From an uncultured virus (IMG/VR IMGVR_UViG_3300037245_003208) (Duplodnaviria > Heunggongvirae > Uroviricota > Caudoviricetes), in IMG/VR virus record IMGVR_UViG_3300037245_003208: DNA of 64,000 nucleotides; one strand, written 5' to 3'. Positions 625 through 44,789 of the stretch are shown piece by piece. Within the stretch, counting starts at the first letter, position 1; every line of letters starts with the position of its first letter. Under the pieces are notes generated by a model. It was not told the origin of the DNA. It did no database searches and saw only the letters and a program-made list of their open reading frames with translations. Both the position numbers and the translations under genes were made by a program.

Positions 625-3600
625 TTATTGATATCCAACTACCCTGTACGAAAACTTCTGCTCTGTTAATAATGGTTTTCCCTCAATATCCCATGCACGT
701 ATTCTGCATCCTTCTGGATTAGCCTCATCCCATTCTTGAGCATTTAAAACAACTGGTACAGTTCCTATGGCTTCAGGGCCTACTGAAATTACCTCAACAA
801 AATCTTTAGCAAATTCAATGTATTTTCCAACGCCCTGCTCATATAAAGCAAAATCTTGATCACTTGTCAAGGGGATTGAGTAAAGCCTCACATCGTCCAG
901 TTTTCCATCTCCAGTATAGCTGCTTGAACTGCCTCTTCCACCAATTGCTGGAAATATCCCATTTGAACTAATGCCACCTGATGCAAGTGTTTGAGCAACT
1001 CCATTAATATAAATTATTAAATTATAGGCATTATCCAAAACTGCTACTATGTGATAAAATTTACCATGTTCTAATGGAGTGAGAGCGTATTCAGAAGTGC
1101 CATTCACTCTTACATTTACGTAAGGATTTGCACCGTCCTGCCCTAAAATTGCTAATTGGAAATTATCCCCACCACTGTCTAACATCGTAAAATAGCGTGG
1201 ATCTGCATCAGATGGAAATTCATTAATAAGTAACCACATGGAAACAGTCATACCTGCAGAAATATCTACAAGATTAGTTGGAATGGTAGCATATTGATCA
1301 TTTGAGCTGTCTAATGTTAAATCCTTATAATTGACTAAGCCGCCATCTGTGAATGCAGAACCAGTTGCATTCACCAATGTTCCATCATTGTTATTCCCAC
1401 TAAAATCTTCCACAGTTGTTGAATCATCATCTAATTTCCACCACCCAACTAAATCATCTTGAGGAACAGCAGCTAAAATTCCATTTCCTGATTCTTCAAC
1501 TTTGTGCGAAGCCAAAGTCAATGTATTGTTTTTAAGTAACGCCAACCTATCATCTGATTCAGGAGTGAATTTTATTTTACTTTGGATATATCTAAAAGTA
1601 AAATACATGAATGCTGTAATATTGTCACCATCAACGTCAAAAAATTCAGCAGTTTCTCTAACACCTTGAAGATGTGTGGTTAAGCTAACTACTCCACCAA
1701 TGGCTGCCTTAGTAACAGCAATTGAAACCGTTGAAGAATCTAAAAATGAATCTTCCTCGCTCCCATCATTTTCAATTCTTTCACCGTCAGCTTCATCTGA
1801 ATTAAATTCAAAATAATCAAATTCTTCTTTTGAATATGACTCAACAGATGGCATGTAAATTGAATTATGAGGAACATCATCAAAAGTAGCAGCAGCTCCC
1901 CACCACTCATCAAAAGACATGTCCAGATTAACCCCCATAATTAATTCAACATCTTCAGTAATCACAGCATTACTATATTCTATTCTGTAACGTTCCCAGT
2001 AAGCATATCCATACAAGGTAGCAGGTTCGTCGTACCCTGTTCCTGAAGTATGTGGACTTACACAAATAAACGTTCCAATGTCTAATTTTCGCATGTTATT
2101 TGTGTAAGCATTTTCACTAACATCACCACTGAATAAATACATTATTTTATCTTTAACGCAGGAACTTATAAAATACGCTCCTGCACCATCTGAAAGTATC
2201 TGCTCCCAATCATGGGTTAACATATCAAATATCCACAGATCATCAAAGTGATCTGTTGCATTTGTGTGTCCACCAAACATAATTATTTTATTATTAATAA
2301 GTTCTGCAGATGGGTATCTGCGCCCATCAAATGGACTGGCACTGGATTGCAGTGTCCAAACATCTGTTGACATGTTATACGCATAAACAGCATTAAGAGG
2401 AATAGAAGCATCTTGTCCACAAACACAGTACACGTATTTATCCTTATATGTTACGAATCCAAATCCATATAAAGGAGCACAATCAGTTTTCTGTGTCCAA
2501 GTTGAAGTAGCAATTGCATATTCCCAAATCACATTTAAAGTTGTGGTGGTGTATCCTCCAATAATATATAATTTACCATCATATATTCCACCCCCTGCTG
2601 AACTGGTTGCATGCTGACCTGTTAACGTACTCCAAGTGTCTGTGGCAATATCATAAACTTGAAAATAGTTGCGCGTGGTTCCGTCATAACCCCCGTAATG
2701 ATATATTTTACCATTGCCATCTGGAATTAACAGACCTAAGCCAGTTGCAAAAGCACCGCTATCTAATGCTTCCCAAGCATCTGTTGCAATATCATAAGAA
2801 TAAAAATCAGATAAATAAGTCTCACCTGAATTTTGCCCACCATAGACATACATTTTTCCATTATATTCACAACTACTTGAAAGTCTTCGTGCAGTGGCTC
2901 CAGGTGTCAAGTCTTCCCAAATGCTTTGGGAAACACACTCATTTAATGGGTATTCAATATTCTCACCCCATCCTGCAGGATTATCATTTTTAACAACATT
3001 ATACCATTCTTTGTTCAGTACAAAATTTGGGTCTTGTTTCACTTCTACTGTTTTACTCACCACATTTCCTAAATTTCCCTCAACATCTACTGGTTGGATA
3101 TAGTAAGTAAACATGCCAGATAAATATTCAAAAAAATTGGTAAATGTCCCATCCTTATCACCAGTATCCACAGCAGTATCAAATGACCCCGTTTCCTCGC
3201 TTCTTTTAATTTTATAATGGCTGACAGGGAGCAATGTTTGGGCATGTTCAGCAGCTTCCCAGTCCAGCAAAATGTTGTTGTTTATTGTCTTAATATTAAA
3301 TGCAGTTATTACTTCTGGTTTATAAATATACTGCTCACTGTGTGCTGGTATTGATTCATTTGCCCCGTCTTTAGCAACCACTCCAACTTTGTAAATACTG
3401 AAACCTTCAACTGTTCGAGTAGTTAAATTCAGCTTAGCAAGGAATGTAGTTCCTGAATAATCGTCCGTAGATGGGTTTGCACCACTTAAAGTATCTAAAA
3501 CAATCATAACATCATCACGGTAAAACACTAAATCGTATGTGAGTACTGGGTATGAGGTTTTTACTGGTTTTTCCCATTCAATTATTAAGTTATCTGCAGT

Positions 3601-6600
3601 TCTTTTCACTTCCAAATTAACAGGAATATTAGGAACGGTGATACTGGCATCAGTCGATATTGAATTAGAAGACACAATATTGTTTGCATTTTGAACTTCT
3701 ATTTTATATTCGTAAGTGCCTGATTCTAATAATTCATTATGTGAAAATTTTGTATCTTTTATATTTATTCCTAATTCAACATCTTCAATGGATATTTTGA
3801 ATGACAAGGGCCAAACATCTTCTACAGAATCCCAAAATAAATTAGTTCCAATGGTTGTTAAATTGGCAGTTAAAGTTGCGGGAGCGGACAATTCGCCTAC
3901 CACAAGTTCTATTTCTGTCCATTCTGCTGAAGTCTGGTTCCATATATCCACACCTCTGACTTTGCAAGTATATGTTCCTGGGTTTAAATATTTTTTATAT
4001 GTGAAAGCATCCCCTGACACATTGACAGTTGAGAAAATTTCAGTTTCACCTTCATAAATGCTGACATCGTATAATTGCACCCATATTGTCTCAATCACGT
4101 CCCATTGTAATTCCACTCCTGCAACCACTCTTGAAACACTCACATTGGCAACGTTTGTTGGGATTTCTGGTTTTCCTAAAAATACTATGCTTGTGCCTGC
4201 ATCATTTTTCCCGCCCAGCCCAACTTGCTCCACTTTAAAATAATAAGTGACATCTAAAGTAGAAAGCAAGTCTGAGGGAACTGTGAATTTTGGAGCGTCA
4301 ACAGTTCCAGCAAGTACAAATCCTTCATCCTCTTGCTGACTTATAAATATGTTCCAACTTGAACCCAGACCACGCCATGTTAGCTCAATAAAAGCAACAC
4401 CCACGCCACTGGATAATTGCCATTTCTCAGAGGCTACTAAATTATCAATATAATTAATGTTTGCTGGAAACTCTTCGATAGTAGATACTACAAAGGCATC
4501 TGCATATGAATTTTCATCATAAGTGCATCCAGTTATTTTAAAATACAGTCCATCAGCCCTCTCAATATTGGCAATTCTAACAGGTTTTGCTGCCAAAGCT
4601 TTATCTGGAAGTCCTAAAGAATAAAGTGGTAAAGTATCTGTAGGAATTATTTCTGAATAACCCCCTTCAATCCATCCATTAATTAATTGCACAGTGGTTG
4701 TATTCACACCATCATGAATAAATTTAATATAATTTATTGTGAATACATCTGCATTAGAAATCCCCAAATTAAATTTTAATGCTGATATTAAGGCATTCCA
4801 TTCATCGTTTAACATTCTCCCAGAAGTTGCTTGAGCAGTAATGCTGGTTATATCTATTAGGAACTCTGTAGGAGTGCCCACACTGGGAGAACTTCCTAAT
4901 GGCAATGTCACAGTATTGGAAATGCCTTGCTTCCGTTCAAAGCTGAATTTGCCATCCCAGCCACTGCCTGCTGTTCGCGTAACACTTATAGCAATTTGTG
5001 GGTAATCCCCACCATCCAGAATTCCCCTATTAATGGCATCAACTAACGAATCAAAAACAAGATCGTATTCACTGGTGGACGATGTTAGAATATTGGCAGC
5101 AAAAACAGAGGAACCAAAATTTTCCCAACCGCCCCAGAAATCAGTTTTCCAATACAAATCATTCCCATCAGTTTTCTCTTCAATTGCAGGAATTGTGTAA
5201 GTTCGTAATAAATCTTGATCAAATAAAATAGTAATTATGGAATCATCTACATAAGCTTCTTGCAATCCTACAGAAATGGTGAAAAATTTACCTGACCAAC
5301 TTGTATAACCATATTCATCACCATCAATTACAATGCCACCAGTACTTGGAGTGTCAACATCTATAACTTCATTTACAGGTATGATTCTTTCAAAATTAAC
5401 AATTACAGGCGTATCTGGAGCATAAGTTTCAGTAAGGGCAGTAACTAATGTAAAAACAGCACCACTCCAGCTTGTGTAGAAATAAGCAATTTCATCATCA
5501 GTTCCTTCATTCAATGTCACACTTCCATTTGGAGGCATGTTGTCATTGATTGTATTGGCTACTTCTAATGCTAATTCACCTTCATCTGCAACTGCCACCA
5601 AATTTTCATTATTGGAAAAATTACAGGTATAAGAAGTATTAACTGAATGAGAATCAAATCTAACTTCTAATCTGTAATCTTTGGTATCGTCCAGCACAGC
5701 AATATCATCAATTATTGCTGTATGTTTGGTAACATCAATTAATCTTCCACCCGCAGTTAGATTTTCTGTTCTTGATTTACCAAAATAAACAACATCACCT
5801 ACTGAGCACCCAATTCCATCTATGGCTGTTTCCCACGTAATGGCATCCTGCACAGCATTAGTCTGATTCAGAACATGGGTAGCAAAAGCCTTTGCATGCT
5901 CTTTTGATTTCACTGTTTTTAAGACAAACTCTGCTTTGTTCAGAACAGCACCCTCTGCTAAATTAACACTGTCACGAACCAATAAACCAGTACGTTCATA
6001 ATTATTGTCAGCATCCCAGTACCACACAACTACAGCATTTGCTTTTTCTGCATCTCTTATATATGTTTTACTGTAAGACCCTTTTCTGATATTTCCGTCA
6101 GAGAACATAGTTTTTGGAATTGTGGGCCTGCTTATGTTAACACCCCATTTAGTTCCTTTTTGAATTATTAAAGCTCTGCAAGTCCTTCCAATTTCATCAA
6201 GAATGCTTCGCAGAGTGTACTGCTCATCCACGTACCATGATATTAAATATCTGTAATAATCAGGTTCAAATGCATGCGCGTTTTCATTGAGAAGAGAGCA
6301 ATGGTAAGCTAATTCATCAAATTCTTCTAAAAGTATATCACTTTCAAGAACCCCTGATTTTCGTATAAAATAAAGTGCTGCCCATGCTGGACTGTTCAAT
6401 GGGAGTTTTCCCATTGAGGCATTTAAAGTATCAAAAATTCTGGAACCCTCTAATTCTACTAAAGGCGCAGACATTGAAGAAGCAACTGCTTTGAATTTTA
6501 GTGCAAGCAAAGAACAGCCAGGATATGCAAAAGGACTATCAATTACTTCCTGAACATAATCAAAATACAGCGTTGTTTGGTACTTTGATCTGTCCTCTGC

Positions 6601-8442
6601 AGGAACGGATACATCTACTGGAGGTTCAGCATATCGCACTTTAAATGAATAAATTGAACCTTTATTCAAATTAGTGAATGTTTGTTTTTTCCTAAAAGAA
6701 TTAGTGCTTGCTTTGGTAACAGAAGTTGTTGAGGTGTCTACAGGAACACCATTTTCATACATGGTTATTTCGTAAGTTACAGTGTGGTCTATATATGCAC
6801 CATTATCATTTATTTTATACAATCCATTTGGAAATGTTAAAACAACAACAAGAGCATCCACATTTTGACTCTGAGTTTGGGATGATGAATAATCCACACC
6901 GTATTCAGCCCATTGCAAGAATTGAGGTTGTTTTTCTGCTTCACCTGCCCAGCTTAAAAATGGCCCACATTTTAATGCACTTCCCCAAAATGAAGAATCC
7001 ACAAGCGATGAAAATGGGTTTTTGTCGAGGTATCCGTAACTGGTGGAATCTATTTCGTAATTTACTTTAAATTCCCATTCACCTTCTTCTGGAAACACAA
7101 CACCTAATTCGTAATTTAAAGCACGAGTGGCGTTTATTGAAGAATAGTAACTATCATAATGCTCCCATGCAGAATCTCCCACTTTACGATAATGTACAAC
7201 AATTTTAAAACGCATTGCTGTTATGTTTTCATAAGGCGGACTCGTCCATGTCTGCCCCTCAAAAGTGTATGTTTGCTCTGTTGTTTTGCATCCAATAGTT
7301 ACAATACGGTCACGATCGCCACTCCCAGAGTGCCTGGTTATCTTGGGGTGGTACGTGATCAGTTGTCCTCCCATGGGTAAAGAAACTTCAACCTTGATAG
7401 CCCGTATTCCAGAACCAGTAGTGAACAGATAAGTGCTATCACTGTCATCAAATTCATATTTAGAAGATAAAACATTTGCATTTTTACTTCCGTCAGGAAC
7501 ATATAAAGAGGACGTTTCAGATAAATAAGTTATCTCATCATTAACATCTTTATCCAAAACACTGTTTGAAAATTGTGGAGGAATTGTCAGAACTTCATCA
7601 CTGTCAGGGTCATTATAATAAGTGTCTATAGACTGCAAAGCGTTGCCGTAGTTCTCTGCTAATATCCCATCTATCCACAAATAATTCCAAAGCTTTCCTT
7701 CTTTTTCATAAGCCCCTAATTGAATGTTATCTGTTCCTACCAAGTACAGGAGATTTAAATATTGATCTTGTGCTTCAATATCATCTGTAACTTCACTCAT
7801 TCCCAGTGATCTGTGACCACTTATCAATATAGGGGCAAATTTTGTTGTTCCCAGTAATTCAGGAATTGGAGTTCCTTCAACAGCATAATTGGTAGCTGGG
7901 CCATAACCATAATTTCGTGTTATTGGGCCCATTGTTGGGTCTGATGTGGCAACATCCTCAGTAATTGGCGTTAAAGGAAAAACAGAATCAATAATCATCG
8001 ACCCAGCCCATGTTGCTCCAACAGTTAAAGCTGTTCCTGTGGCAAATGCTGTCCAGCCACTAAGTCCCATTTCAAGACCAAAACCAAACATACTTGGCCC
8101 TGAAACAAGTTGACTTCCAGGCCCTAAAAAATAAATAGCTGCAGCGGCAATTGCTATTTTAGCCACCAAATTTAAAGTATTGTTTGGATCGCCACCTCCC
8201 ATAATAGTTAAATTGTATGCAATAAAACTCCCATGCGGCACTAAAGTATTTGGAGGTACAGGAACACCATTTAAATTATAACAAACTTCAATCCCTGCAA
8301 TAACTGGCATGTCAGAAGTGCAGTAATTGGCCACTGTTTTATGGGATTCAAAATCCACAATTTTCTCCACGGCATCAAAAGGAGTTAGTGGATTTGGAAT
8401 GAACAATAATTTAATTTTGTCTTTAGGCAGTTTTAAAAACAT
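625..8442 (-). CDS. Central tail-tip/host-specificity protein (lambda I+J-like) with FN3 repeats, Kelch propeller and LamG domain
   Basis: 2605 aa. J-like motifs (EGTPIPELLG, FPNGLY, YPGCSLLAL, ANAVVVWYWDADNNY, GCSVGDVV), FN3-like repeats, about six Kelch repeats (MYVYGG..YDIATDAW) and a LamG motif (LVGWWKLDD...GKLDDVRLY). Confidence 0.88.
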   Translation of the reverse strand: MFLKLPKDKIKLLFIPNPLTPFDAVEKIVDFESHKTVANYCTSDMPVIAGIEVCYNLNGVPVPPNTLVPHGSFIAYNLTIMGGGDPNNTLNLVAKIAIAAAAIYFLGPGSQLVSGPSMFGFGLEMGLSGWTAFATGTALTVGATWAGSMIIDSVFPLTPITEDVATSDPTMGPITRNYGYGPATNYAVEGTPIPELLGTTKFAPILISGHRSLGMSEVTDDIEAQDQYLNLLYLVGTDNIQLGAYEKEGKLWNYLWIDGILAENYGNALQSIDTYYNDPDSDEVLTIPPQFSNSVLDKDVNDEITYLSETSSLYVPDGSKNANVLSSKYEFDDSDSTYLFTTGSGIRAIKVEVSLPMGGQLITYHPKITRHSGSGDRDRIVTIGCKTTEQTYTFEGQTWTSPPYENITAMRFKIVVHYRKVGDSAWEHYDSYYSSINATRALNYELGVVFPEEGEWEFKVNYEIDSTSYGYLDKNPFSSLVDSSFWGSALKCGPFLSWAGEAEKQPQFLQWAEYGVDYSSSQTQSQNVDALVVVLTFPNGLYKINDNGAYIDHTVTYEITMYENGVPVDTSTTSVTKASTNSFRKKQTFTNLNKGSIYSFKVRYAEPPVDVSVPAEDRSKYQTTLYFDYVQEVIDSPFAYPGCSLLALKFKAVASSMSAPLVELEGSRIFDTLNASMGKLPLNSPAWAALYFIRKSGVLESDILLEEFDELAYHCSLLNENAHAFEPDYYRYLISWYVDEQYTLRSILDEIGRTCRALIIQKGTKWGVNISRPTIPKTMFSDGNIRKGSYSKTYIRDAEKANAVVVWYWDADNNYERTGLLVRDSVNLAEGAVLNKAEFVLKTVKSKEHAKAFATHVLNQTNAVQDAITWETAIDGIGCSVGDVVYFGKSRTENLTAGGRLIDVTKHTAIIDDIAVLDDTKDYRLEVRFDSHSVNTSYTCNFSNNENLVAVADEGELALEVANTINDNMPPNGSVTLNEGTDDEIAYFYTSWSGAVFTLVTALTETYAPDTPVIVNFERIIPVNEVIDVDTPSTGGIVIDGDEYGYTSWSGKFFTISVGLQEAYVDDSIITILFDQDLLRTYTIPAIEEKTDGNDLYWKTDFWGGWENFGSSVFAANILTSSTSEYDLVFDSLVDAINRGILDGGDYPQIAISVTRTAGSGWDGKFSFERKQGISNTVTLPLGSSPSVGTPTEFLIDITSITAQATSGRMLNDEWNALISALKFNLGISNADVFTINYIKFIHDGVNTTTVQLINGWIEGGYSEIIPTDTLPLYSLGLPDKALAAKPVRIANIERADGLYFKITGCTYDENSYADAFVVSTIEEFPANINYIDNLVASEKWQLSSGVGVAFIELTWRGLGSSWNIFISQQEDEGFVLAGTVDAPKFTVPSDLLSTLDVTYYFKVEQVGLGGKNDAGTSIVFLGKPEIPTNVANVSVSRVVAGVELQWDVIETIWVQLYDVSIYEGETEIFSTVNVSGDAFTYKKYLNPGTYTCKVRGVDIWNQTSAEWTEIELVVGELSAPATLTANLTTIGTNLFWDSVEDVWPLSFKISIEDVELGINIKDTKFSHNELLESGTYEYKIEVQNANNIVSSNSISTDASITVPNIPVNLEVKRTADNLIIEWEKPVKTSYPVLTYDLVFYRDDVMIVLDTLSGANPSTDDYSGTTFLAKLNLTTRTVEGFSIYKVGVVAKDGANESIPAHSEQYIYKPEVITAFNIKTINNNILLDWEAAEHAQTLLPVSHYKIKRSEETGSFDTAVDTGDKDGTFTNFFEYLSGMFTYYIQPVDVEGNLGNVVSKTVEVKQDPNFVLNKEWYNVVKNDNPAGWGENIEYPLNECVSQSIWEDLTPGATARRLSSSCEYNGKMYVYGGQNSGETYLSDFYSYDIATDAWEALDSGAFATGLGLLIPDGNGKIYHYGGYDGTTRNYFQVYDIATDTWSTLTGQHATSSAGGGIYDGKLYIIGGYTTTTLNVIWEYAIATSTWTQKTDCAPLYGFGFVTYKDKYVYCVCGQDASIPLNAVYAYNMSTDVWTLQSSASPFDGRRYPSAELINNKIIMFGGHTNATDHFDDLWIFDMLTHDWEQILSDGAGAYFISSCVKDKIMYLFSGDVSENAYTNNMRKLDIGTFICVSPHTSGTGYDEPATLYGYAYWERYRIEYSNAVITEDVELIMGVNLDMSFDEWWGAAATFDDVPHNSIYMPSVESYSKEEFDYFEFNSDEADGERIENDGSEEDSFLDSSTVSIAVTKAAIGGVVSLTTHLQGVRETAEFFDVDGDNITAFMYFTFRYIQSKIKFTPESDDRLALLKNNTLTLASHKVEESGNGILAAVPQDDLVGWWKLDDDSTTVEDFSGNNNDGTLVNATGSAFTDGGLVNYKDLTLDSSNDQYATIPTNLVDISAGMTVSMWLLINEFPSDADPRYFTMLDSGGDNFQLAILGQDGANPYVNVRVNGTSEYALTPLEHGKFYHIVAVLDNAYNLIIYINGVAQTLASGGISSNGIFPAIGGRGSSSSYTGDGKLDDVRLYSIPLTSDQDFALYEQGVGKYIEFAKDFVEVISVGPEAIGTVPVVLNAQEWDEANPEGCRIRAWDIEGKPLLTEQKFSYRVVGYQ

Positions 8443-34391: not shown

Positions 34392-34844
34392 TCATTCTTC
34401 ATCTAAGGCCGCATTAATCTTTTTTCGCATTTCTTTTGTAAGTTCGTCCTCATCTTCTTCAAAAAGAATACAAAGGGGATTGGCCATGATTTGTTTTAAC
34501 CAGTTAGCCTCTGTCTTATTTAATTCTATGGTAAATGTCATTATATCCTCCTTCACAATATCCTTGCAATCAGGCTTGTGCTGACACATAGTGCACATCC
34601 CATTCAAATCCCCTTTGTAATCACCAAAGCAGGGCATGGATTGACAATTATCACAATAAGTCAGCCCACACGGGCATTCTATTTCTTCTTCTAAAGTGCA
34701 TTCATAACCACCGTATATGGCATCAAAATCTAAATGGCCGCAGTCTTTTGCACTCCCTGAACCACAATTTGGACATGGTGTTTTTGATTTATCTAAAACC
34801 ATAGACATCTTATTTAACTTAGTCATTATATCCTCCTTGGACAT
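34392..34844 (-). CDS. Cys-rich Zn-binding protein
   Basis: Multiple CxxC motifs; the start may be at an internal Met. Confidence 0.6.
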   Translation of the reverse strand: MSKEDIMTKLNKMSMVLDKSKTPCPNCGSGSAKDCGHLDFDAIYGGYECTLEEEIECPCGLTYCDNCQSMPCFGDYKGDLNGMCTMCQHKPDCKDIVKEDIMTFTIELNKTEANWLKQIMANPLCILFEEDEDELTKEMRKKINAALDEE

Positions 34845-35491
34845 TTTTCCACAGCTTCTTTAACTCTATCCATAATGCCATCAAATGGTTCGTCATATGC
34901 CTGAATAACAAATGGGTATATGCCGTCACAGTTTTGAAACAAAACATCCCCATTAGGAAACAAACCAAGTCTTGTGGGTACTTCATATGTTTGACACTTA
35001 TTGGTGCATGTCCAATCATCTTTCTTAGCACGGCCCATAGGATGTATAATATCATCGCCTTTTAATCTCATCCCATCAGGGTATGCATCCTTTAACATTT
35101 GCAATTTGTGCACATCTTGGTATTTTTTATGGTGAGGAGTTCCGCTGACCACAAGGAACATTTTATTGTGTGTAAGGAATGCAACAAATTCCCACATTAA
35201 CTCATTACTTATTGTTGTCCAACTACCGTTTGATATGCAAAATCTTGGAACATCTTCAGGAATCATATCAATAAACCACTGGAACACTGGCATGTTGATT
35301 GAAATCTCGCCACCATAAAACCCACATGAATTAATCATGCTCCAGTCTATTGTGCTAATAAATTTCTCAGTTTTCTCAATGTCTAAAATTTCCTTTTGTT
35401 CCATGTCACAATCATACATGCAGAAGGGACAATTCAAATTGCACTTCAAACTTGGAATAAAACTGAAATCTATTAATTTTTCCTGGGGCAT
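34826..35491 (-). CDS. Radical SAM protein
   Basis: CNLNCPFC (CxxxCxxC), FYGGE, ISNG, PMGRA and a short C-terminal Cys cluster. Confidence 0.9.
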   Translation of the reverse strand: MPQEKLIDFSFIPSLKCNLNCPFCMYDCDMEQKEILDIEKTEKFISTIDWSMINSCGFYGGEISINMPVFQWFIDMIPEDVPRFCISNGSWTTISNELMWEFVAFLTHNKMFLVVSGTPHHKKYQDVHKLQMLKDAYPDGMRLKGDDIIHPMGRAKKDDWTCTNKCQTYEVPTRLGLFPNGDVLFQNCDGIYPFVIQAYDEPFDGIMDRVKEAVEKCPRRI

Positions 35492-35799: not shown

Positions 35800-36741
35800 T
35801 TATTCCCAGTTATATTCGCGATACAATGCTTCAATCAAAAAACGATTCCAAAATTTCCTATTTACTTTTTCTGGATAATTACTATATTTAGTTAATTCTT
35901 CAATATAATCAATGGCCTCCTCAAGAGCAGGAGCAACAACGGATAAATAATCTAATTCACCGCGTTTGACCTGTTTTAAAAGTTTTGCATTTTTTAAAGG
36001 AAACTCAATTGTTCCTTTTGTGTAAATACTAATGAGTTGAGTAGCTGCTCTCAAAGCATGTGAAATTGCTTTCCAGTCAATTCCTTTGTTTTCTTTAGCC
36101 AATTGTGCTCTATGTCCATAGTCATTGATAAATCTTTTTATAATATCAGAGCAGTAACCTATCTTACTTGTTCCCTGGAGCTTTTTCCCACATACCTGAT
36201 AAAACACTTCGCCATTCTGCTCAACAAAATGAACGTGCTCAGGAAGAGGTAAACTTTCCCAAAAAGTTTCCATTTTCTGATCAGGGCGTAAATAACTAAG
36301 ATAGGTCAAAACTTCTTCAGCACTTGCAATCCTGCTTCCTTTGATTCCATACTTTGCAGCCTGTTTTCTGCAGTACCCCACAAAAGCTTTAAGATTCTTG
36401 GTATAAAACAAATGCCTGTTCTGCACTATTCTGTTCCAGATATCTGATTTTTCAAGTACCATATTATCAGGAGCATGCAACATATCAATAGCAGCAGTTT
36501 CTCCTTTACAACACAATTCTAAAAAATAATGGAATGAATAAAATTCTGAATCTACATCACCTTTCGTATTTTTGGAAAAATTATTTCCTGTGGATTCAGA
36601 AAAGTGTTTGGGAATTCTGTTTAATAAAATTTCTTCTTTTGTGGGTAAAAACACTCCTTTGAAATCTTCATCTGAATCAGGTGTATTTGTTCCATAAAGA
36701 TGACTCCCAAATTTCATTTTTACAATGATTTTATGATGCAT
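35800..36741 (-). CDS. Pol-beta-type nucleotidyltransferase (RlaP/Nuc-transf family)
   Basis: FGSHLYGTNTPDSDEDFKGVF and DWKAISHALR motifs. Confidence 0.88.
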   Translation of the reverse strand: MHHKIIVKMKFGSHLYGTNTPDSDEDFKGVFLPTKEEILLNRIPKHFSESTGNNFSKNTKGDVDSEFYSFHYFLELCCKGETAAIDMLHAPDNMVLEKSDIWNRIVQNRHLFYTKNLKAFVGYCRKQAAKYGIKGSRIASAEEVLTYLSYLRPDQKMETFWESLPLPEHVHFVEQNGEVFYQVCGKKLQGTSKIGYCSDIIKRFINDYGHRAQLAKENKGIDWKAISHALRAATQLISIYTKGTIEFPLKNAKLLKQVKRGELDYLSVVAPALEEAIDYIEELTKYSNYPEKVNRKFWNRFLIEALYREYNWE

Positions 36742-36742
36742 G

Positions 36743-37168
36743 TTATTTTTCTCCTTCGTGAATGTTTCCAGTTTTCTCAAAAGTTAAATCTGGATAATGA
36801 AAAGGAACTCTGTGTTTTGTTTCTACATTTTCCACCATGAAAGCACCATCTATAAAAACAATTTTTCCTCTTCCTAAGTGAGTTATTCCTTTACAATCTG
36901 GATCAGCACTTATGGCAATCCAATATTCATAAATGCCTAAATCATCTTCATACAAATCGTTCCCATTTTTGTCAGGAACACCAACATGCCGCATCCAACT
37001 GTGTGTAAACTTCTTGTCTGTGACAGCACGAGTTATCATTTTATCATATGCCATGAAACCTAAGCCTCTTTCTGATTCATGAGGTTCAGAAAAGCACATC
37101 TTACCAACTCTTTTATTTGTCTTAGCATCTAACCGTGAAATATAACATCTTAATTTTATATCATTCAT
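36743..37168 (-). CDS. YopX-family protein
   Basis: IKLR...VGVPDKNGNDLYEDD...GNIHE. Confidence 0.85.
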   Translation of the reverse strand: MNDIKLRCYISRLDAKTNKRVGKMCFSEPHESERGLGFMAYDKMITRAVTDKKFTHSWMRHVGVPDKNGNDLYEDDLGIYEYWIAISADPDCKGITHLGRGKIVFIDGAFMVENVETKHRVPFHYPDLTFEKTGNIHEGEK

Positions 37169-38753: not shown

Positions 38754-39027
38754 TTAGTCATCCTTTATATAGTTGGTGGGTGTTTAATATCTACTTACAC
38801 TGATATCATTTATTCCCTTTATTATCCAGAACTAATTTGTGATGTTCCTAAACGCAGTCAAGTATTCATTATCTGTTATTGGTGGACGGTAATTGGGGAA
38901 TATATACTTCAAGGGTATAGAAAAAAACGTGGTGGACAATCCGTTACTGTATATCATACCCCTCCCCCCATAGATAGATGGAGTGGGTGGGTATCAGGGC
39001 AACAACCCCAGGGGGTATGGCTATGCG

Positions 39028-39063
39028 AATAATAGCCCAATATACATATATTGGGCTATTATT
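39028..39063. repeat. Perfect 17-bp-arm inverted repeat
   Basis: AATAATAGCCCAATATA-CA-TATATTGGGCTATTATT. Confidence 0.95.
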
Positions 39064-39605
39064 GATTATTTGATACAAATGAAGGCAATAGTAAAGAAGG
39101 GGCTGAAAATTCTGGTGCTGTAGTCATGTGCGCTCTTATCAATTATCCCCCTGAGTGCATTGTTATGCAATGGTATGAATAAACACAATAGTAAGCTGAT
39201 ATGGTATGTATATAGTTAGATTGATTGTATAGGAGTACATAAGCAAGTAAGAAACTTTATATACAATAGATATGTATAATAGATATACATATGATAAGGA
39301 GTTACTAAGAACCTATTTAGATAGGTAGAAAAGAATATTATATATTATTATAGTACATGGTAGGGGTAATATAATTAAATTGATTATGGATAGCTTTATA
39401 TTGATTTTAGTTATTGTTAATTACTTTATGTTCTAATTATGTTTTTTTTTATTTGTGAATGAATTTGTTAATATATTTTTTTATAAATAGGATTTAAGAG
39501 GAGTAAATTTTTATAAGGCAATGTGATTCGTTTTTTGTGGGGTTATGGTGGTATGGCATGACAGTGGTAGGCAATGAATGTAAATGATGCCGTGTGGTGA
39601 TGGTG

Positions 39606-40845: not shown

Positions 40846-41049
40846 TTAATAACGGTCAATGTTTATGGTTGCATAATATTCAAGTAAACAACCCCATTGA
40901 GCAAGTCCTGTTACTATTGAGCGCAATATAAAAATAATGGTATGCGGTACTATTCCCAACAAATTATAATCCATTGTGTAGGTAATAACGCCGTCAAAAT
41001 AAATAATACTGAGTATTATCATTGTTAATATTATTAATACTTTTTTCAT
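40846..41049 (-). CDS. Small membrane protein
   Basis: Two hydrophobic stretches; AGGAG RBS. Confidence 0.6.
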   Translation of the reverse strand: MKKVLIILTMIILSIIYFDGVITYTMDYNLLGIVPHTIIFILRSIVTGLAQWGCLLEYYATINIDRY

Positions 41050-41097
41050 TTTTTATGGCTCCTTTCCAGGGGTTATTAGCCCCTGGGGGTTAATGAG

Positions 41098-42168
41098 TTA
41101 AATAGCAATGTCATATTTTAGATAAGTGTTATAAACGGATTTAAGCATGGTTTTATCAAAATTCTGCTTATCAAAAACAAGTTCTTTTGTTACTTGTGCA
41201 TTTTTTAATTCTGCAAAATATTTATTAATTTTTATCTGAGTTACTTTTCCATTTTTTTCATGTGCTTTATATTTTTTGCTGATTTCGTAACTCCAATGTA
41301 AATTAAAACGGTCTTGTAAATGTGCAGGATTAAAAGTAATTGAATCTTTAATATTTTGCTCACTGGTGCAAGATTGCGAATGTTTCCGCTCATGTACTTT
41401 GTGTATTTTTTCAAACAAAACTTTGATTTTTTCTTGGTCTTTTGTCTGTCCAGTTATTTCATTGTTTTTTAATAAGCGGTCAATAAACTTACTATTTGCA
41501 GCCATTTTTAATATTGGTTGCTGATAATTGATAGTTTGCGCATCATCAATTAAAAATGAAAAATCAAATTTGTGAGTCAGGTTTAAAATCTGAATATAAT
41601 TGATAAGATGATTTTTATAAATCTTGATTTTTAATATTTTAATACCTAATATTTTTGATATTTTACTCATTTTGTAATTTTTAATGAAGTAAAAAGAATA
41701 TATTTGTTTTAATAACCTGTAATCAATAACCCTTAAGTCAAGATCAATTAAAACTCTTTTGTCTAAACGTTTTATAATGTACCTATGTAAATCACAAAGT
41801 CTATGCAATGACTTAACCTGTTTTTTATCTTCAATTTGCAAATGTTCATTTTCAAGACTTTCAAAAGTTTCACTGTAACGGCCTGATTTTCTGTTTTCAT
41901 CTTTTAAACAGTCATTGAATACTTTAAATATATAAGCTTTTACATGGTTTTTATTTTCTGGATTACTTGAAAACAAAATGTTTTTAAGTTTTTGAGGTAT
42001 TCCATTTTTAATTATTTTTTCAATTGAGGTATTAACAATATCATTCATGTTTATCATTTTTTCCGTTTTTGACTCACTGTATTTTTTTGCAGTTAATAAA
42101 GTATAAAATTTTGTAATTTCTTCATTATTCAATTTTACATTTTTTATTTCAGTAATTTGTTTTTTCAT
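41098..42168 (-). CDS. ECF sigma-factor-like protein with a ~160-aa C-terminal extension
   Basis: Region-2-like KAYIFKVFNDCLKDENRK and region-4 HTH-like IYSFYFIKNYKMSKISKILGIKILKIKIYKNHLI, at ECF-like spacing. Confidence 0.65.
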   Translation of the reverse strand: MKKQITEIKNVKLNNEEITKFYTLLTAKKYSESKTEKMINMNDIVNTSIEKIIKNGIPQKLKNILFSSNPENKNHVKAYIFKVFNDCLKDENRKSGRYSETFESLENEHLQIEDKKQVKSLHRLCDLHRYIIKRLDKRVLIDLDLRVIDYRLLKQIYSFYFIKNYKMSKISKILGIKILKIKIYKNHLINYIQILNLTHKFDFSFLIDDAQTINYQQPILKMAANSKFIDRLLKNNEITGQTKDQEKIKVLFEKIHKVHERKHSQSCTSEQNIKDSITFNPAHLQDRFNLHWSYEISKKYKAHEKNGKVTQIKINKYFAELKNAQVTKELVFDKQNFDKTMLKSVYNTYLKYDIAI

Positions 42169-42376
42169 TTTTTTAATCCTTTTATTAAAGAGTTAATTGT
42201 TTTTTATTTTTGATTCTAAATAAAAGTAAGTATTTTTTGTAAAATTAACAACTATTATTTTCATTTATTTATTATTATTTTCATTTACCGAATGTTATTT
42301 ATTATTATTTATATTTTTTATTTTCGTGCAGATCATTAATTTTTAATATGTTTAAGCATGTTTTTATTTTTCAAAA

Positions 42377-42593
42377 ATCTGAAAACATACTTTTATATTT
42401 TTTCGCACGTTTACATTTTGAAAGAAGATTTTTTATATTTTAAATTTTTATATGTCAAAAATATAAAAATATCTGAAAACATACTTTTATAAATATTCGC
42501 ACGTTTCTATTTTAAGTAACGTAAAAGGCTTTTTAGATTTTAAAAAGATAAAATAAAATCTGAAAACATACTTTTTAAATTTTTCGTTCGTTT
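42377..42593. repeat. Three 36-bp direct repeats (promoter/operator-like)
   Basis: ATCTGAAAACATACTTTT-n7-TTCG(CA/TT)CGTTT starting at 42377, 42471 and 42558. Confidence 0.92.
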
Positions 42594-42609
42594 ATTTAGT
42601 AAGAACAAA

Positions 42610-43380
42610 AACAAACAGTTTTAAAAGACAACGCTCAACTATTACTGATTAAATCCCATTAATGGTTGCGCCTTGTGTTGTGGTGTGTAGTGTGCCACAC
42701 ATGACAGTATTACTGACTCACTTCCTGAGTTAACATGCTATGTAACAGGCTAAAAAGTTGATTTAATATGATATCAACCAATAGCTATGATTAACACTCA
42801 TGAAAGGTTTTAATTTCATGTTGCTGTAGTAGTTATTATTTTTCAGGTTCTGCAATGGATTTCATTTACCTGTTTAATATACAAAGCATTGAAACAACTA
42901 TTATCTAATACATGCACGTTTAAAAATTGCTATGATTGCACTAATAATGCAACCGTTAACAGTGTAATGAACTGTAATTTGAACTGTTAACAATAATCAA
43001 TTTATTCTATTTAATTTATTTAAATTGGTTATATGAATCAGATTACTAAGCAAGTGTTAAAAATAATAAATAGTTTTTAACAAAAACAATCTATATAATA
43101 AGGATATTGCATACTGTAATTATATGGATTTAAAACTTTAAAAAGTATGCAACAAAGATATATTTAAAGTCGTAAATTTAGATATGCTTTAATATTGCAA
43201 TTTCTCACCCCGCCTGCATTGTGTGACCAATCCAGGCACGGGAAATAATGAGAAATTTTTGCATTCAGATTAATGGGATTGCGAATAGCGGTATTATGGC
43301 AATGACAATCTTTATTGACTTTAAAACGTTTCTGCAAATAGCAGTAATCTTGCGATTTTAGATTTTAAATATATCTTTCT
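42610..43380 (+). ncRNA. Putative large ornate structured RNA (~770 nt)
   Basis: ORF-free in the track. More than 12 nested helices plus long-range pairings 42652-63/43269-80, 42791-98/43053-60 and 43154-68/43364-78. G-U pairs favour the + strand. Confidence 0.75.
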
Positions 43381-43423
43381 ATTCTTTTTAGTTTCCATTT
43401 AAACCCATAAATGGAGAAAAATC

Positions 43424-43585
43424 ATGAAAAATAAAATAGGAATGAAAATTTTCAGATTATTAAATAAACCTGAAAACAGAAATATTGTTGTGGATATTTG
43501 TTTCATTAAATATCCATTTATTTTCCTATATGACTTTGGTACACAGAAATATGAAAGTGTTGCCATTGCCACATTGAATGTTTAG
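43424..43585 (+). CDS. 53-aa hypothetical protein
   Basis: Hand-translated MKNKIGMKIF...ATLNV; its GGAG RBS overlaps a hairpin at 43394-43415. Confidence 0.55.
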   Translation: MKNKIGMKIFRLLNKPENRNIVVDICFIKYPFIFLYDFGTQKYESVAIATLNV

Positions 43586-43645
43586 AAATTAAGCCCTTAT
43601 GGGCTTAAATGGTAACTAAAAAATAAAACAAATAGGAGAAATATC

Positions 43646-44491
43646 ATGGAATTTTCAATAGTAAAAAGAACTGATATTAACTATAGTGACAGCCAACCCA
43701 GGCAAGTTTTTGATAAAAAAGAAATTGCACAAATGGCTAAATCCATGGGAACCCGTGGATTTCGTGGAGCTGTTAAAATCAACAAAAAAGGCATGGTTCT
43801 TATTGGTGGTGCTCGTAGACTTGCGGCTGCTGAGATTGCAAAAATAACAGATATCCCTGCATTAATATTTGATGATATTAAGGATGAGAAATCATTATTC
43901 ATGGAACAAATTGCAGACAATTCAAACAGAGTTAATCTGACATTGCAGGAAACTCTTGATGCGTATACCAGGGGAATTGAACTTGGTTCAACCACTGGTG
44001 AACTTGCAGCATTATTGGGAAAAACAGAAGCATCTGTTAAAAAAGAATTGGCATGGTTAAGTTTACCTAAAGATGTAATCAAAGCGGTTGATACTGGTAG
44101 TTTCCCCCGTGCTGGACTTGCAGAAATTGTGAAATTCCCAGCTAATAAAGTGGAAAAAGCTTTCGCAAAAGCTGCTAAAGGTACTAATGTCAAAGAAATT
44201 TCTGGAATTCTTAAGAACTACTCAAAAGATCTTTCAGAGTCCAAAAAGAAGAAAGCAGAATTAAAGAAGGAAACACCTACAGCAGCAGAAAAACGTGAAA
44301 CAAAAGCAGCCAACACCAAAAAGCGTCAAGCCTGGACTACAGCACATGCCAAAATTACAGGATTTGAAAATCTTCCTACTGCATTTGGTAAGGCTGACAT
44401 TGGGAAATTCGCAGACGAATTGAAAGCATCTGCTAAAATACTTCAGGACATGATCGTGGAAATGGAAGCAAGAAAAGCAGAATTAAAATAA
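43646..44491 (+). CDS. parB: ParB/Spo0J-like protein
   Basis: QPRQVF, LIGGARRLAAA, DNSNRVNL and an HTH (ELAALLGKTEASV). Confidence 0.88.
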   Translation: MEFSIVKRTDINYSDSQPRQVFDKKEIAQMAKSMGTRGFRGAVKINKKGMVLIGGARRLAAAEIAKITDIPALIFDDIKDEKSLFMEQIADNSNRVNLTLQETLDAYTRGIELGSTTGELAALLGKTEASVKKELAWLSLPKDVIKAVDTGSFPRAGLAEIVKFPANKVEKAFAKAAKGTNVKEISGILKNYSKDLSESKKKKAELKKETPTAAEKRETKAANTKKRQAWTTAHAKITGFENLPTAFGKADIGKFADELKASAKILQDMIVEMEARKAELK

Positions 44492-44493
44492 TA

Positions 44494-44552
44494 ATTATCA
44501 GGAAATTAAAAGCCATTAATAGAGGGTTAATGGCTTTTCGAATTTTGATAAT
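44494..44552 (+). terminator. Long hairpin after parB (terminator or RNase III-like site)
   Basis: AAAAGCCATTAA/TTAATGGCTTTT inner stem with an ATTATCA/TGATAAT outer stem. Confidence 0.6.
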
Positions 44553-44591
44553 AAATAAAGTATAAATATAATAAAAGGAGACTTTTACAAT

Positions 44592-44789
44592 ATGAGAAAA
44601 TTATTCAAATTTTCAGAAAAATCAGAAAAGAAATGTCAGGGTTGTGATACTAAATTAAAAAAGAATCTCATACACAAAAAACCTGACGCTGACAAATGTT
44701 ATAAATGTTTCATGTCTGGGAAAATGACAAATCAGCAGAAACGAAATGAAGAATTTCGTAAAATGGGCAAAGGTGTTAAAAGTGTTTGA
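44592..44789 (+). CDS. Small CxxC Zn-finger protein
   Basis: CQGC...CYKC; AGGAG RBS. Confidence 0.7.
   Translation: MRKLFKFSEKSEKKCQGCDTKLKKNLIHKKPDADKCYKCFMSGKMTNQQKRNEEFRKMGKGVKSV

Follow-up and report, generated by a model that had tools for sequence, protein, structure and literature searches.

In a novel siphovirus-like phage, the strand switch at which minus-strand structural genes give way to plus-strand replication genes (42168/43424) may be a divergent transcription-control region. Tandem phage-specific promoters, probably read by a sigma-like protein encoded next to them, would drive the parB/replication arm through a structured leader. We put this reading forward tentatively, as a whole that is plausible rather than probable, and see in the case a clearly framed hypothesis, short of a discovery. 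All features lie within a 64,000-nucleotide window, the whole stretch of DNA that was analyzed, and their positions are collected in Table 1.

Table 1. Features at and around the strand switch, in window coordinates
Feature	Position	Strand	Basis or remark
67-aa hydrophobic small ORF	40846..41049	minus	directly downstream of 356-aa gene
356-aa orphan ORF	41098..42168	minus	ATG start; first gene of leftward arm
AT-rich region upstream of 356-aa gene	42169..42362	strand-neutral	GC about 14%
Bipartite element copy 1	42363..42422 (core 42377-42412)	plus	direct repeat and profile
Bipartite element copy 2	42457..42516 (core 42471-42506)	plus	direct repeat and profile
Bipartite element copy 3	42544..42603 (core 42558-42593)	plus	direct repeat and profile
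Bipartite element copy 4, diverged	42889..42921	plus	pattern scan; inside structured stretch
ORF-free self-complementary stretch	42610..43400	plus and minus both fold	folding against shuffles
Inverted-repeat module	43385..43622	plus	26-nt arms 43385-43410 / 43597-43622, 92% complementary
53-aa ORF	43424..43585	plus	ORF call; GGAG 8 nt upstream
ParB-like gene (ParB_N and HTH)	43646..44491	plus	PF02195 E 1.4e-7; phrog_3264 E 1.2e-17

The two arms are separated by a gap of 1,255 bp (42169–43423) that holds no ORF of at least 60 aa under translation table 11, table 4 or a TAG=Q reading, the last of which changes only the 53-aa ORF, extending it to 63 aa. A recoded gene in the gap was rejected on the table 4 and TAG=Q results, and a tRNA or tmRNA was rejected on search. 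GC content is 14–19% across 42100–42599, and the AT-rich region contains a short tandem repeat with a period of 20 nt (42253–42300). No outstanding sigma-70-type promoter lies upstream of the 356-aa gene (18 promoter-like sites, 15.5 expected), and no host-type promoter was identified for it. To the right, the ParB-like gene is the first long gene of the replication arm, which also comprises a helicase, a primase, a ligase and a DnaB-like helicase. To the left, a GC hairpin (41066–41086) precedes the 67-aa ORF and abuts its ribosome-binding site. Neither this ORF nor the 53-aa ORF has a match in Pfam or PHROG.

Between the 356-aa gene and the self-complementary stretch lie three direct, non-palindromic copies of a bipartite element, as the first-pass annotation had reported. 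Each is 60 nt long; the copies are 94 and 87 nt apart, 75–77% identical overall, and built from an 18-nt block (perfect in all three), 7 variable nt and an 11-nt block. The bipartite pattern has three matches against 0.00 expected (100 shuffles), and the uniqueness of the repeats in the window is observed directly, with a three-copy profile finding only copies 1–3 (E 1.8e-10 to 2.8e-9) ahead of a next-best site at E 0.77. We add a diverged fourth copy about 329 nt beyond copy 3, missed by this profile and keeping the 18-nt distance between blocks of the others; a pattern defined after copy 4 was seen gives four matches against 0.03 expected.

Spacer and flanks of the repeats vary and conservation is confined to the two blocks at a fixed distance, which matches the prediction for a promoter. 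The element is laid out as TGAAAAC, 17 nt and CG(C/T)(A/T), flanked by A/T tracts. Two studies give group 4 (ECF) sigma promoters an AAC-containing −35, a spacer of about 16–17 nt and a CG-containing −10 (PMC4598750, PMC3426412). As putative promoters, the repeats fit this group 4 layout, and the ECF-type AAC/CG elements proposed at first pass hold up as a lead. A sigma-70 reading was rejected because the TTGACA/TATAAT pattern is not fitted; sigma-54, sigma-70 and sporulation-type readings of the blocks were dropped on comparison by eye, the conserved positions not coinciding; and a CRISPR-like array was rejected on the internal variation of the repeats and their spacing of 87–94 nt. The perfect first block, at 18 nt, exceeds the length needed for a −35 element.

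All four copies point rightward, away from the 356-aa gene, and none lies upstream of it. ECF sigmas usually, if not universally, have a promoter copy at their own gene and a co-transcribed anti-sigma gene. Here there is no sign of autoregulation, since every copy faces away from the gene, and the ECF-style autoregulation suggested earlier is not upheld. The earlier remark that no obvious anti-sigma gene is present stands as a lead: a domain search recognized no anti-sigma domain in the 67-, 62- and 59-aa ORFs downstream of the 356-aa gene. As same-orientation, promoter-like elements heading a phage arm, the repeats resemble T7 A1–A3, a set of strong host sigma-70 promoters that all face the same way and open a long operon, with roughly a polymerase footprint from one to the next. 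Unlike A1–A3, they depart from the sigma-70 consensus. Their spacing of 87–94 bp would permit polymerases to bind side by side. Across the other intergenic gaps, a search for a shared promoter motif found only the Shine-Dalgarno AAAGGAG to recur. Since a single locus in the 64 kb carries the motif, the regulon of a phage sigma would here be very small; the window leaves out about 25 kb of the 89-kb contig.

The 356-aa gene, whose coordinates were borne out together with those of the plus-strand 53-aa ORF, probably encodes the phage's own promoter-recognition (sigma) factor. Residues ∼13–210 are most likely a very diverged sigma-70-family region with sigma2 and sigma4. The leads to this sigma-likeness come from a protein language model and from weak structural comparisons. 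In the Atlas feature search, matches scored 0.95–0.96; six of 30 carry a Pfam family, and all six are sigma-70 families. Nine of ten Atlas structure rows are sigma-factor clusters (TM 0.23–0.30 by query, up to 0.51 by row). Foldseek placed ECF sigma L on top, with 19 of the 45 listed rows from sigma-containing entries and every E at 0.88 or worse. An unbiased fold search of 48,161 chains put unrelated helical proteins on top and sigma-related ones in three of 50 rows. Aligning to RpoE with hhalign gave one stretch (residues 75–126 on RpoE 69–120) at a probability of 0.2%, and the AlphaFold models are poor (pLDDT 33.6 from the single sequence, 37.3 from a two-sequence alignment). The sigma2/sigma4-like character claimed at first pass survives as a lead for the first ∼210 residues, and finds no significant match to a sigma family by sequence, profile or structure.

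Sequence relatives are few. A search of about 15 billion proteins returned a sole homologue, P0002 (354 aa, 47% identity), encoded on a 9,843-bp NCBI contig; word-indexed searches, run both with one sequence and with a profile, gave nothing beyond the protein itself (P0001) and P0002, and tblastn found no relatives of either in a phage collection or of P0002 among plasmids. Pfam, NCBIfam, PHROG and PDB sequences yielded no match to the 356-aa protein, and at E up to 10 neither P0001 nor P0002 matched a sigma family in Pfam or NCBIfam (Sigma70_r2 and Sigma70_ECF undetected). A terminase-small-subunit identity was dropped (phrog_891 E 0.0093, no stretch passing). Identity to P0002 by segment is 39.8%, 46.0% and 50.7%, residues 211–356 being the best-conserved part. 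This part has no Pfam match and no SnoaL-like extension, and Atlas gave no usable relative for it.

The same results bear on the possibility that the repeats are unrelated to the 356-aa protein. They would then be promoters for a host alternative sigma or operators of another phage regulator, and the protein a helical DNA-binding or structural protein of another kind. Host polymerase normally transcribes early phage arms unaided by phage factors, which counts for this account, as do the facing-away of the elements, the failure of Pfam, NCBIfam, PDB and hhalign to give a significant sigma match, and the three rows in 50 of the unbiased fold search. We nevertheless think it unlikely: the Pfam-bearing Atlas matches are all sigma-70, the Atlas structure rows are nearly all sigma clusters, and the position of a sigma-like gene beside unique ECF-type elements would have to be a coincidence.

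Phage sigmas that serve lytic development are known to have diverged far from their bacterial counterparts (PMC9429907). One such protein is phiEco32 gp36, acting with gp79, a small diverged lytic-phage sigma by which host core polymerase is turned toward a promoter motif specific to the phage (PMC12276001). The 356-aa protein is like the gp36 type in being a putative diverged sigma with its own promoter class, but has an extra conserved C-terminal domain of ∼145 aa, and the motif is found at one locus rather than across middle and late genes. By tblastn, nothing in the phage collection resembles it in sequence. ECF41 sigmas carry a regulatory domain fused at the C terminus, lack an anti-sigma and act on one target transcript (PMC3426412). 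The candidate would share with ECF41 and similar groups a sigma2-sigma4 core extended by a large C-terminal part, the lack of an anti-sigma gene, a very small number of targets, and a bipartite promoter that has a spacer of ∼16–17 nt and a CG/TG-containing −10 (PMC3426412; see also PMC8999054). In contrast to ECF41, the 356-aa protein has no detectable Pfam sigma or SnoaL-type domain, its C-terminal domain is unlike any known one, the sigma-like gene has none of the elements upstream of it, and the setting is a phage and not a cell.

Beyond the repeats, starting about 20 nt past copy 3, the ORF-free stretch shows a directly observed excess of self-complementarity. Folded against shuffles, 42610–43400 has a plus-strand z of −6.41 and a minus-strand z of −5.21, compared with −0.07 to −2.90 for ten 791-nt windows of the phage on both strands. 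An 18–24-bp long-range stem (43154–43177 with 43355–43378) closes a domain around a GC-rich hairpin (43199–43257). The first-pass annotation had described a structured RNA on the plus strand; the strong folding holds, whereas its assignment to RNA and to that strand is weakened by the minus-strand folding and the lack of an Rfam match. A wobble-versus-mismatch strand test gave 43:25, without a decision between strands. Because both strands fold well, the structure may reside in the DNA itself, as inverted repeats; a leader RNA and a separate RNA are the other candidates for the stretch.

This behavior of the two strands counts toward a serious rival, in which a replication origin or other DNA-level site occupies the gap. 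The repeats would be iteron-like sites for an initiator or another DNA-binding protein (possibly the sigma-like HTH protein or the ParB-like protein), the zone of 14–19% GC would be an unwinding element, and the many inverted repeats would function at the level of DNA rather than RNA. At least three direct repeats do adjoin an extremely AT-rich zone, directly upstream of the replication arm, and a perfectly conserved 18-nt block suits a protein-binding site. The sign of the GC skew also switches around 38–42 kb, a change that tracks gene orientation and need not indicate an origin. Iterons are usually packed about two helical turns apart, far from the 94, 87 and 329 nt found here, and bipartite copies whose spacer varies in sequence at fixed length have a promoter-like property. 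No DnaA-box-like 9-mer (at most one mismatch) occurs in 42169–43423. Partition sites of the parS type are usually palindromes near parB; the repeated elements are direct and not palindromic, and the other inverted repeats of the gap are not copies of one site. We consider an origin improbable on balance, about as much so as repeats unrelated to the protein.

Under the promoter reading, a long mRNA leader suits the stretch better than a separate RNA gene, because no terminator-like site was found between it and the parB-like gene. The first-pass annotation had treated it as a discrete RNA, against which speak the absence of a terminator before the downstream genes and the presence of copy 4 inside it. 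We find it very unlikely that the tandem promoters give rise to a separate large non-coding RNA spanning 42.6–43.4 kb, which would bind the sigma-like protein through the C-terminal domain of the latter, as partner, decoy or guide. What speaks for such an RNA is the exceptional predicted structure in stem-closed domains, a conserved, basic C-terminal domain with no assigned fold, and the lack of a recognizable anti-sigma domain nearby. The basic charge says little, since the full-length protein has a pI of 9.6 and basic proteins are expected in an AT-rich genome. 6S RNA is one precedent for a structured RNA working with a sigma. The combination of dCas12f, guide RNA and sigmaE is another (PMC12259090). 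Unlike 6S, the stretch has no Rfam 6S match and at ∼800 nt is far larger; unlike dCas12f-sigmaE, the window has no Cas12f-like gene. Across the whole window Rfam gave no match at gathering score, GOLLD and ROOL also being unmatched by the stretch, and the best hit within 42100–43700 (E 0.85) is an unrelated snoRNA model. No other 3′ end is visible, and the folding of the minus strand and the 43:25 strand test weigh against a discrete RNA too. Slightly more doubtful still is a phage-borne sigma-RNA module, in which the C-terminal domain would bind a multi-domain RNA of ∼0.8–1 kb from its own tandem promoters, the RNA being a scaffold, decoy or guide that times and places the sigma on host polymerase.

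At the far end of the stretch, the ribosome-binding site of the predicted 53-aa ORF appears partly buried in a local hairpin (43392–43401 with 43408–43417; −9.1 kcal/mol, z −2.6), its GGAG lying in the 3′ arm, in agreement with the earlier description. The inverted-repeat module encloses this ORF entirely, and the window 43380–43630 has z −4.85.

Considered together, these observations are consistent with a model in which a sigma2 and sigma4 module in the N-terminal ∼210 residues is fused to a conserved domain of ∼145 residues, and in which this domain, in place of a separate anti-sigma, would modulate the sigma-like protein. The repeats would be same-orientation non-sigma-70 promoters, three about 90 bp apart and a diverged fourth 330 bp on, with the neighboring sigma-like protein as the best candidate to read them. 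Rightward transcription would start about 7–10 nt past the second block of each copy, and transcripts would cross a structured untranslated leader of ∼0.8–1.0 kb to reach the small ORF, the parB-like gene and the replication genes. The leader might hide the ribosome-binding site, affect how stable the RNA is or serve antitermination. That the sigma-like gene, the repeats and the structured stretch work jointly, with the first paired to the second, is something we infer.

Relatives of the locus were sought widely. Neither blastn of 41000–44600 against phages nor searches with the 356-aa protein, ParB, P0002 and the alignment in viral, metagenome and genome collections found any. Three loci (L020–L022) were rejected, a nearby nucleotidyltransferase being the only shared gene, and two more (L081, L233) contain unrelated duplications. 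Only chance matches came from scans with the 17-mer core (14 loci), the two-copy tandem pattern (86 genome and four viral loci) and the GC-rich hairpin (25 loci), and likewise from the bipartite pattern (one viral locus and at least 122 metagenome stretches, 101 loci of the latter being checked). The nearest record (G001), with 100% identity, is a fragment whose end falls at window position 39602, short of the locus. Of the sequencing runs listed, one DNA run (X1, with the label marine sediment metagenome) contains the stretch and may be where it came from; no RNA run is listed.

Few phages would be expected to open their replication arm with a kilobase of such exceptional predicted structure. 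Should the 356-aa protein prove to be a sigma factor, it would found a family of which two members are known in a space of about 15 billion proteins; its fused domain would be new, and its promoter class could be recognized from sequence. Were the sigma-RNA module true, it would join 6S RNA and dCas12f-sigmaE as a third type of RNA-sigma partnership. As a sigma factor with its promoters, the locus would offer a small transcription module, possibly an orthogonal one, and a way to approach the timing of gene expression in a phage lineage that is uncultured.

The annotation in the window is that of a siphovirus-like phage, and the record of the sigma-like protein places these 64 kb in an 89,136-bp contig. 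The genes of the two arms run in opposite directions; the switch falls between 42168 and 43424, close to a change in the sign of the GC skew. Among intergenic motifs, AAAGGAG, a strong Shine-Dalgarno, predominates. The sole sequencing run listed as containing the stretch is a DNA run labeled marine sediment metagenome, possibly its source. The 2,605-aa tail protein resembles central tail fiber J over residues 522–936 (phrog_31, E 1.2e-53) and has another domain with a match to phrog_12615. Further along the minus strand, a radical-SAM/4Fe-4S-like protein, whose Pfam match (E 3.7e-5) falls short of the curated cut-off, adjoins a "nucleotidyltransferase" with a strong match to phrog_388 (E 7e-94), and the two may form a nucleotide or DNA-modification pair. 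Relatives of the nucleotidyltransferase, 48–53% identical, occur in three viral contigs (L020–L022) otherwise unrelated to the window. The leftward arm also contains a second large ORF-free gap, of 852 bp with G-rich and C-rich patches, which has no excess predicted structure (z ~ -1.1, both strands) and no Rfam match; a public fragment (G001), 100% identical to the window, stops in this gap, at 39602.

Features of the window and of the locus at the switch of gene direction
Feature	Coordinates	Strand
Tail, tape-measure, capsid, protease and terminase genes	625 to ~31 kb	minus
Tail protein	625-8442	minus
Radical-SAM-like protein and nucleotidyltransferase	34826-35491 and 35800-36780	minus
Second ORF-free gap	38754-39605	
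GC-rich hairpin	41066-41086	
Sigma-like gene (356 aa)	41098-42168	minus
Gap between the 356-aa and 53-aa ORFs	42169-43423	
Tandem repeat, 20-nt period	42253-42300	
Bipartite elements (60-nt direct repeats)	starts 42363, 42457, 42544	
Structured stretch	42610-43400	
Fourth promoter-like copy	42892-42921	
Inverted repeat pair I2	43385-43410/43597-43622	
53-aa ORF	43424-43585	plus
parB-like gene	43646-44491	plus
Helicase, primase, ligase and DnaB-like genes	from ~51 kb	plus

ORF calling recovered both the 356-aa and the 53-aa ORF of the first-pass annotation, which are separated by 1,255 bp. This gap contains no ORF of at least 60 aa under table 11, table 4 or TAG=Q, and searches for tRNAs and Rfam families in it returned nothing. 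The three copies of a bipartite element described earlier are confirmed (three occurrences of the pattern versus 0.00 expected). What the copies share lies mainly in two blocks, one of 18 nt without any difference among the three and one of 11 nt, with seven variable bases between them; the flanks are merely A/T-rich. A profile of the three copies finds no further one in the 64-kb window, where the next best match has E 0.77. A looser pattern, set up after a half-site had been noticed, gives four matches versus 0.03 expected, the additional copy lying on the same strand with the same 18-nt block distance.

The elements read TGAAAAC, 17 nt, CG(C/T)(A/T), and a TTGACA/TATAAT reading does not fit. 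In two published accounts, group-4 promoters have a -35 AAC motif (PMC4598750) and a spacer of 16±1 bp with a -10 of CGTC or TGTT type (PMC3426412), a layout that the elements fit. Two conserved blocks at fixed distance, A/T-tract flanks, a single orientation and ~90-bp spacing suit tandem rightward promoters; that the repeats are instead regulatory sites unrelated to the 356-aa protein seems to us improbable. We assign a similarly low likelihood to an origin of iteron type or another DNA-level site, for which the AT-rich zone, the adjoining replication genes and the two-strand symmetry of self-complementarity would speak, but the repeats are widely spaced and bipartite, and the gap has no DnaA-box-like 9-mers (≤1 mismatch). 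Such 9-mers number 42 in the whole window, versus 24.9 ± 4.5 in shuffles, and are scattered through coding sequence.

The stretch proposed to encode a structured plus-strand RNA does fold in excess of expectation (z -6.41, 20 shuffles per strand), but the minus strand does so too (z -5.21), and none of the features analysed distinguishes the strands, or RNA from DNA. In the ten completed 791-nt background windows of the phage (of 13 planned; both strands, 14 shuffles each), z ranged only from -0.07 to -2.90, including the gap at 38790–39580 (-1.1). The excess of self-complementarity is thus genuine and confined to this locus, with its peaks at 43100–43299 and 42500–42799. The two minimum-energy folds contain 24 and 19 G-U pairs, and in strand-neutral purine-pyrimidine stems G·T versus A·C is 43:25, near the composition-based expectation. 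Since 41900–43800 has no terminator-like site and the stretch itself contains the fourth promoter-like copy, it is better explained as a long structured leader than as an RNA gene in its own right; it may instead act at the DNA level. The partnership between sigma factor and RNA that was first proposed is speculative, and we consider it very unlikely.

At the far end of the putative leader, the 53-aa ORF does have its GGAG buried in a hairpin, though one of modest stability (-9.1 kcal/mol, z -2.6). The 26-nt inverted repeats enclose this entire ORF, and 43380–43630 folds with z -4.85. Upstream of the sigma-like gene, within a 14%-GC region, lies the tandem repeat, with 2.4 copies and 82% matches; an operator, an UP-like element and mere low complexity are all possible readings of it. 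On its other side, the gene is followed by an ORF for a 67-aa hydrophobic protein. The GC-rich hairpin (7-bp stem), located after the stop codon of the former and before the ribosome-binding site of the latter, may couple or gate expression of the two.

The 356-aa protein is probably a sigma factor. Its sigma2/sigma4-like character is suggested by language-model and weak structural leads, but it has no match in Pfam, NCBIfam or PHROGs, and a profile of two sequences matched no PDB sequence even with E values of up to 10 allowed. ESM Atlas feature scores were 0.95–0.96, and all six Pfam-bearing hits among 30 belonged to sigma-70 families; nine of ten Atlas structure rows were sigma clusters, covering residues ~13–237 with TM by query of at most 0.30. 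AlphaFold models were poor (pLDDT 33.6 and 37.3). With the latter, ECF sigma L was the top Foldseek row and 19 of 45 rows came from sigma-containing entries, all at E of at least 0.88. Alignment to RpoE orthologues with hhalign was insignificant (probability 0.2%), its sole aligned stretch placing residues 75–126 on RpoE 69–120, which we take to fall at region 2.3–2.4.

An exhaustive phmmer search of 1.84 billion representatives found one homolog, P0002 (354 aa, 47% identity, E 2.5e-81), encoded on a 9.8-kb NCBI contig. Identity climbs from 39.8% over residues 1–110 to 50.7% over residues 211–356, which argues that the C-terminal domain is under selection; residues 211–356 resemble nothing known. 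In scans of viral, metagenome and genome collections, neither the gene nor the repeats nor the structured stretch yielded a relative. One candidate, a 93-bp tandem duplication between convergent genes of an unrelated 87-kb viral contig (L233:4975–5160; two copies, 98% identical), was rejected as a chance match to the two-copy pattern, the contig having no sigma-like gene and no similarity to the window.

The anatomy of the locus is real and unusual, and its interpretation as a phage sigma with cognate promoters is plausible but unproven. In our preferred but tentative model, to which we give rather less than an even chance, the phage's own sigma-like factor would read the adjacent promoter cluster, which would fire rightward as tandem promoters and launch the parB/replication arm through a structured leader. 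As described in PMC3426412, ECF41 carries a regulatory domain fused at the C-terminus, lacks an anti-sigma and has what is essentially a single target transcript, a precedent that makes a one-locus regulon and an extra domain less odd.
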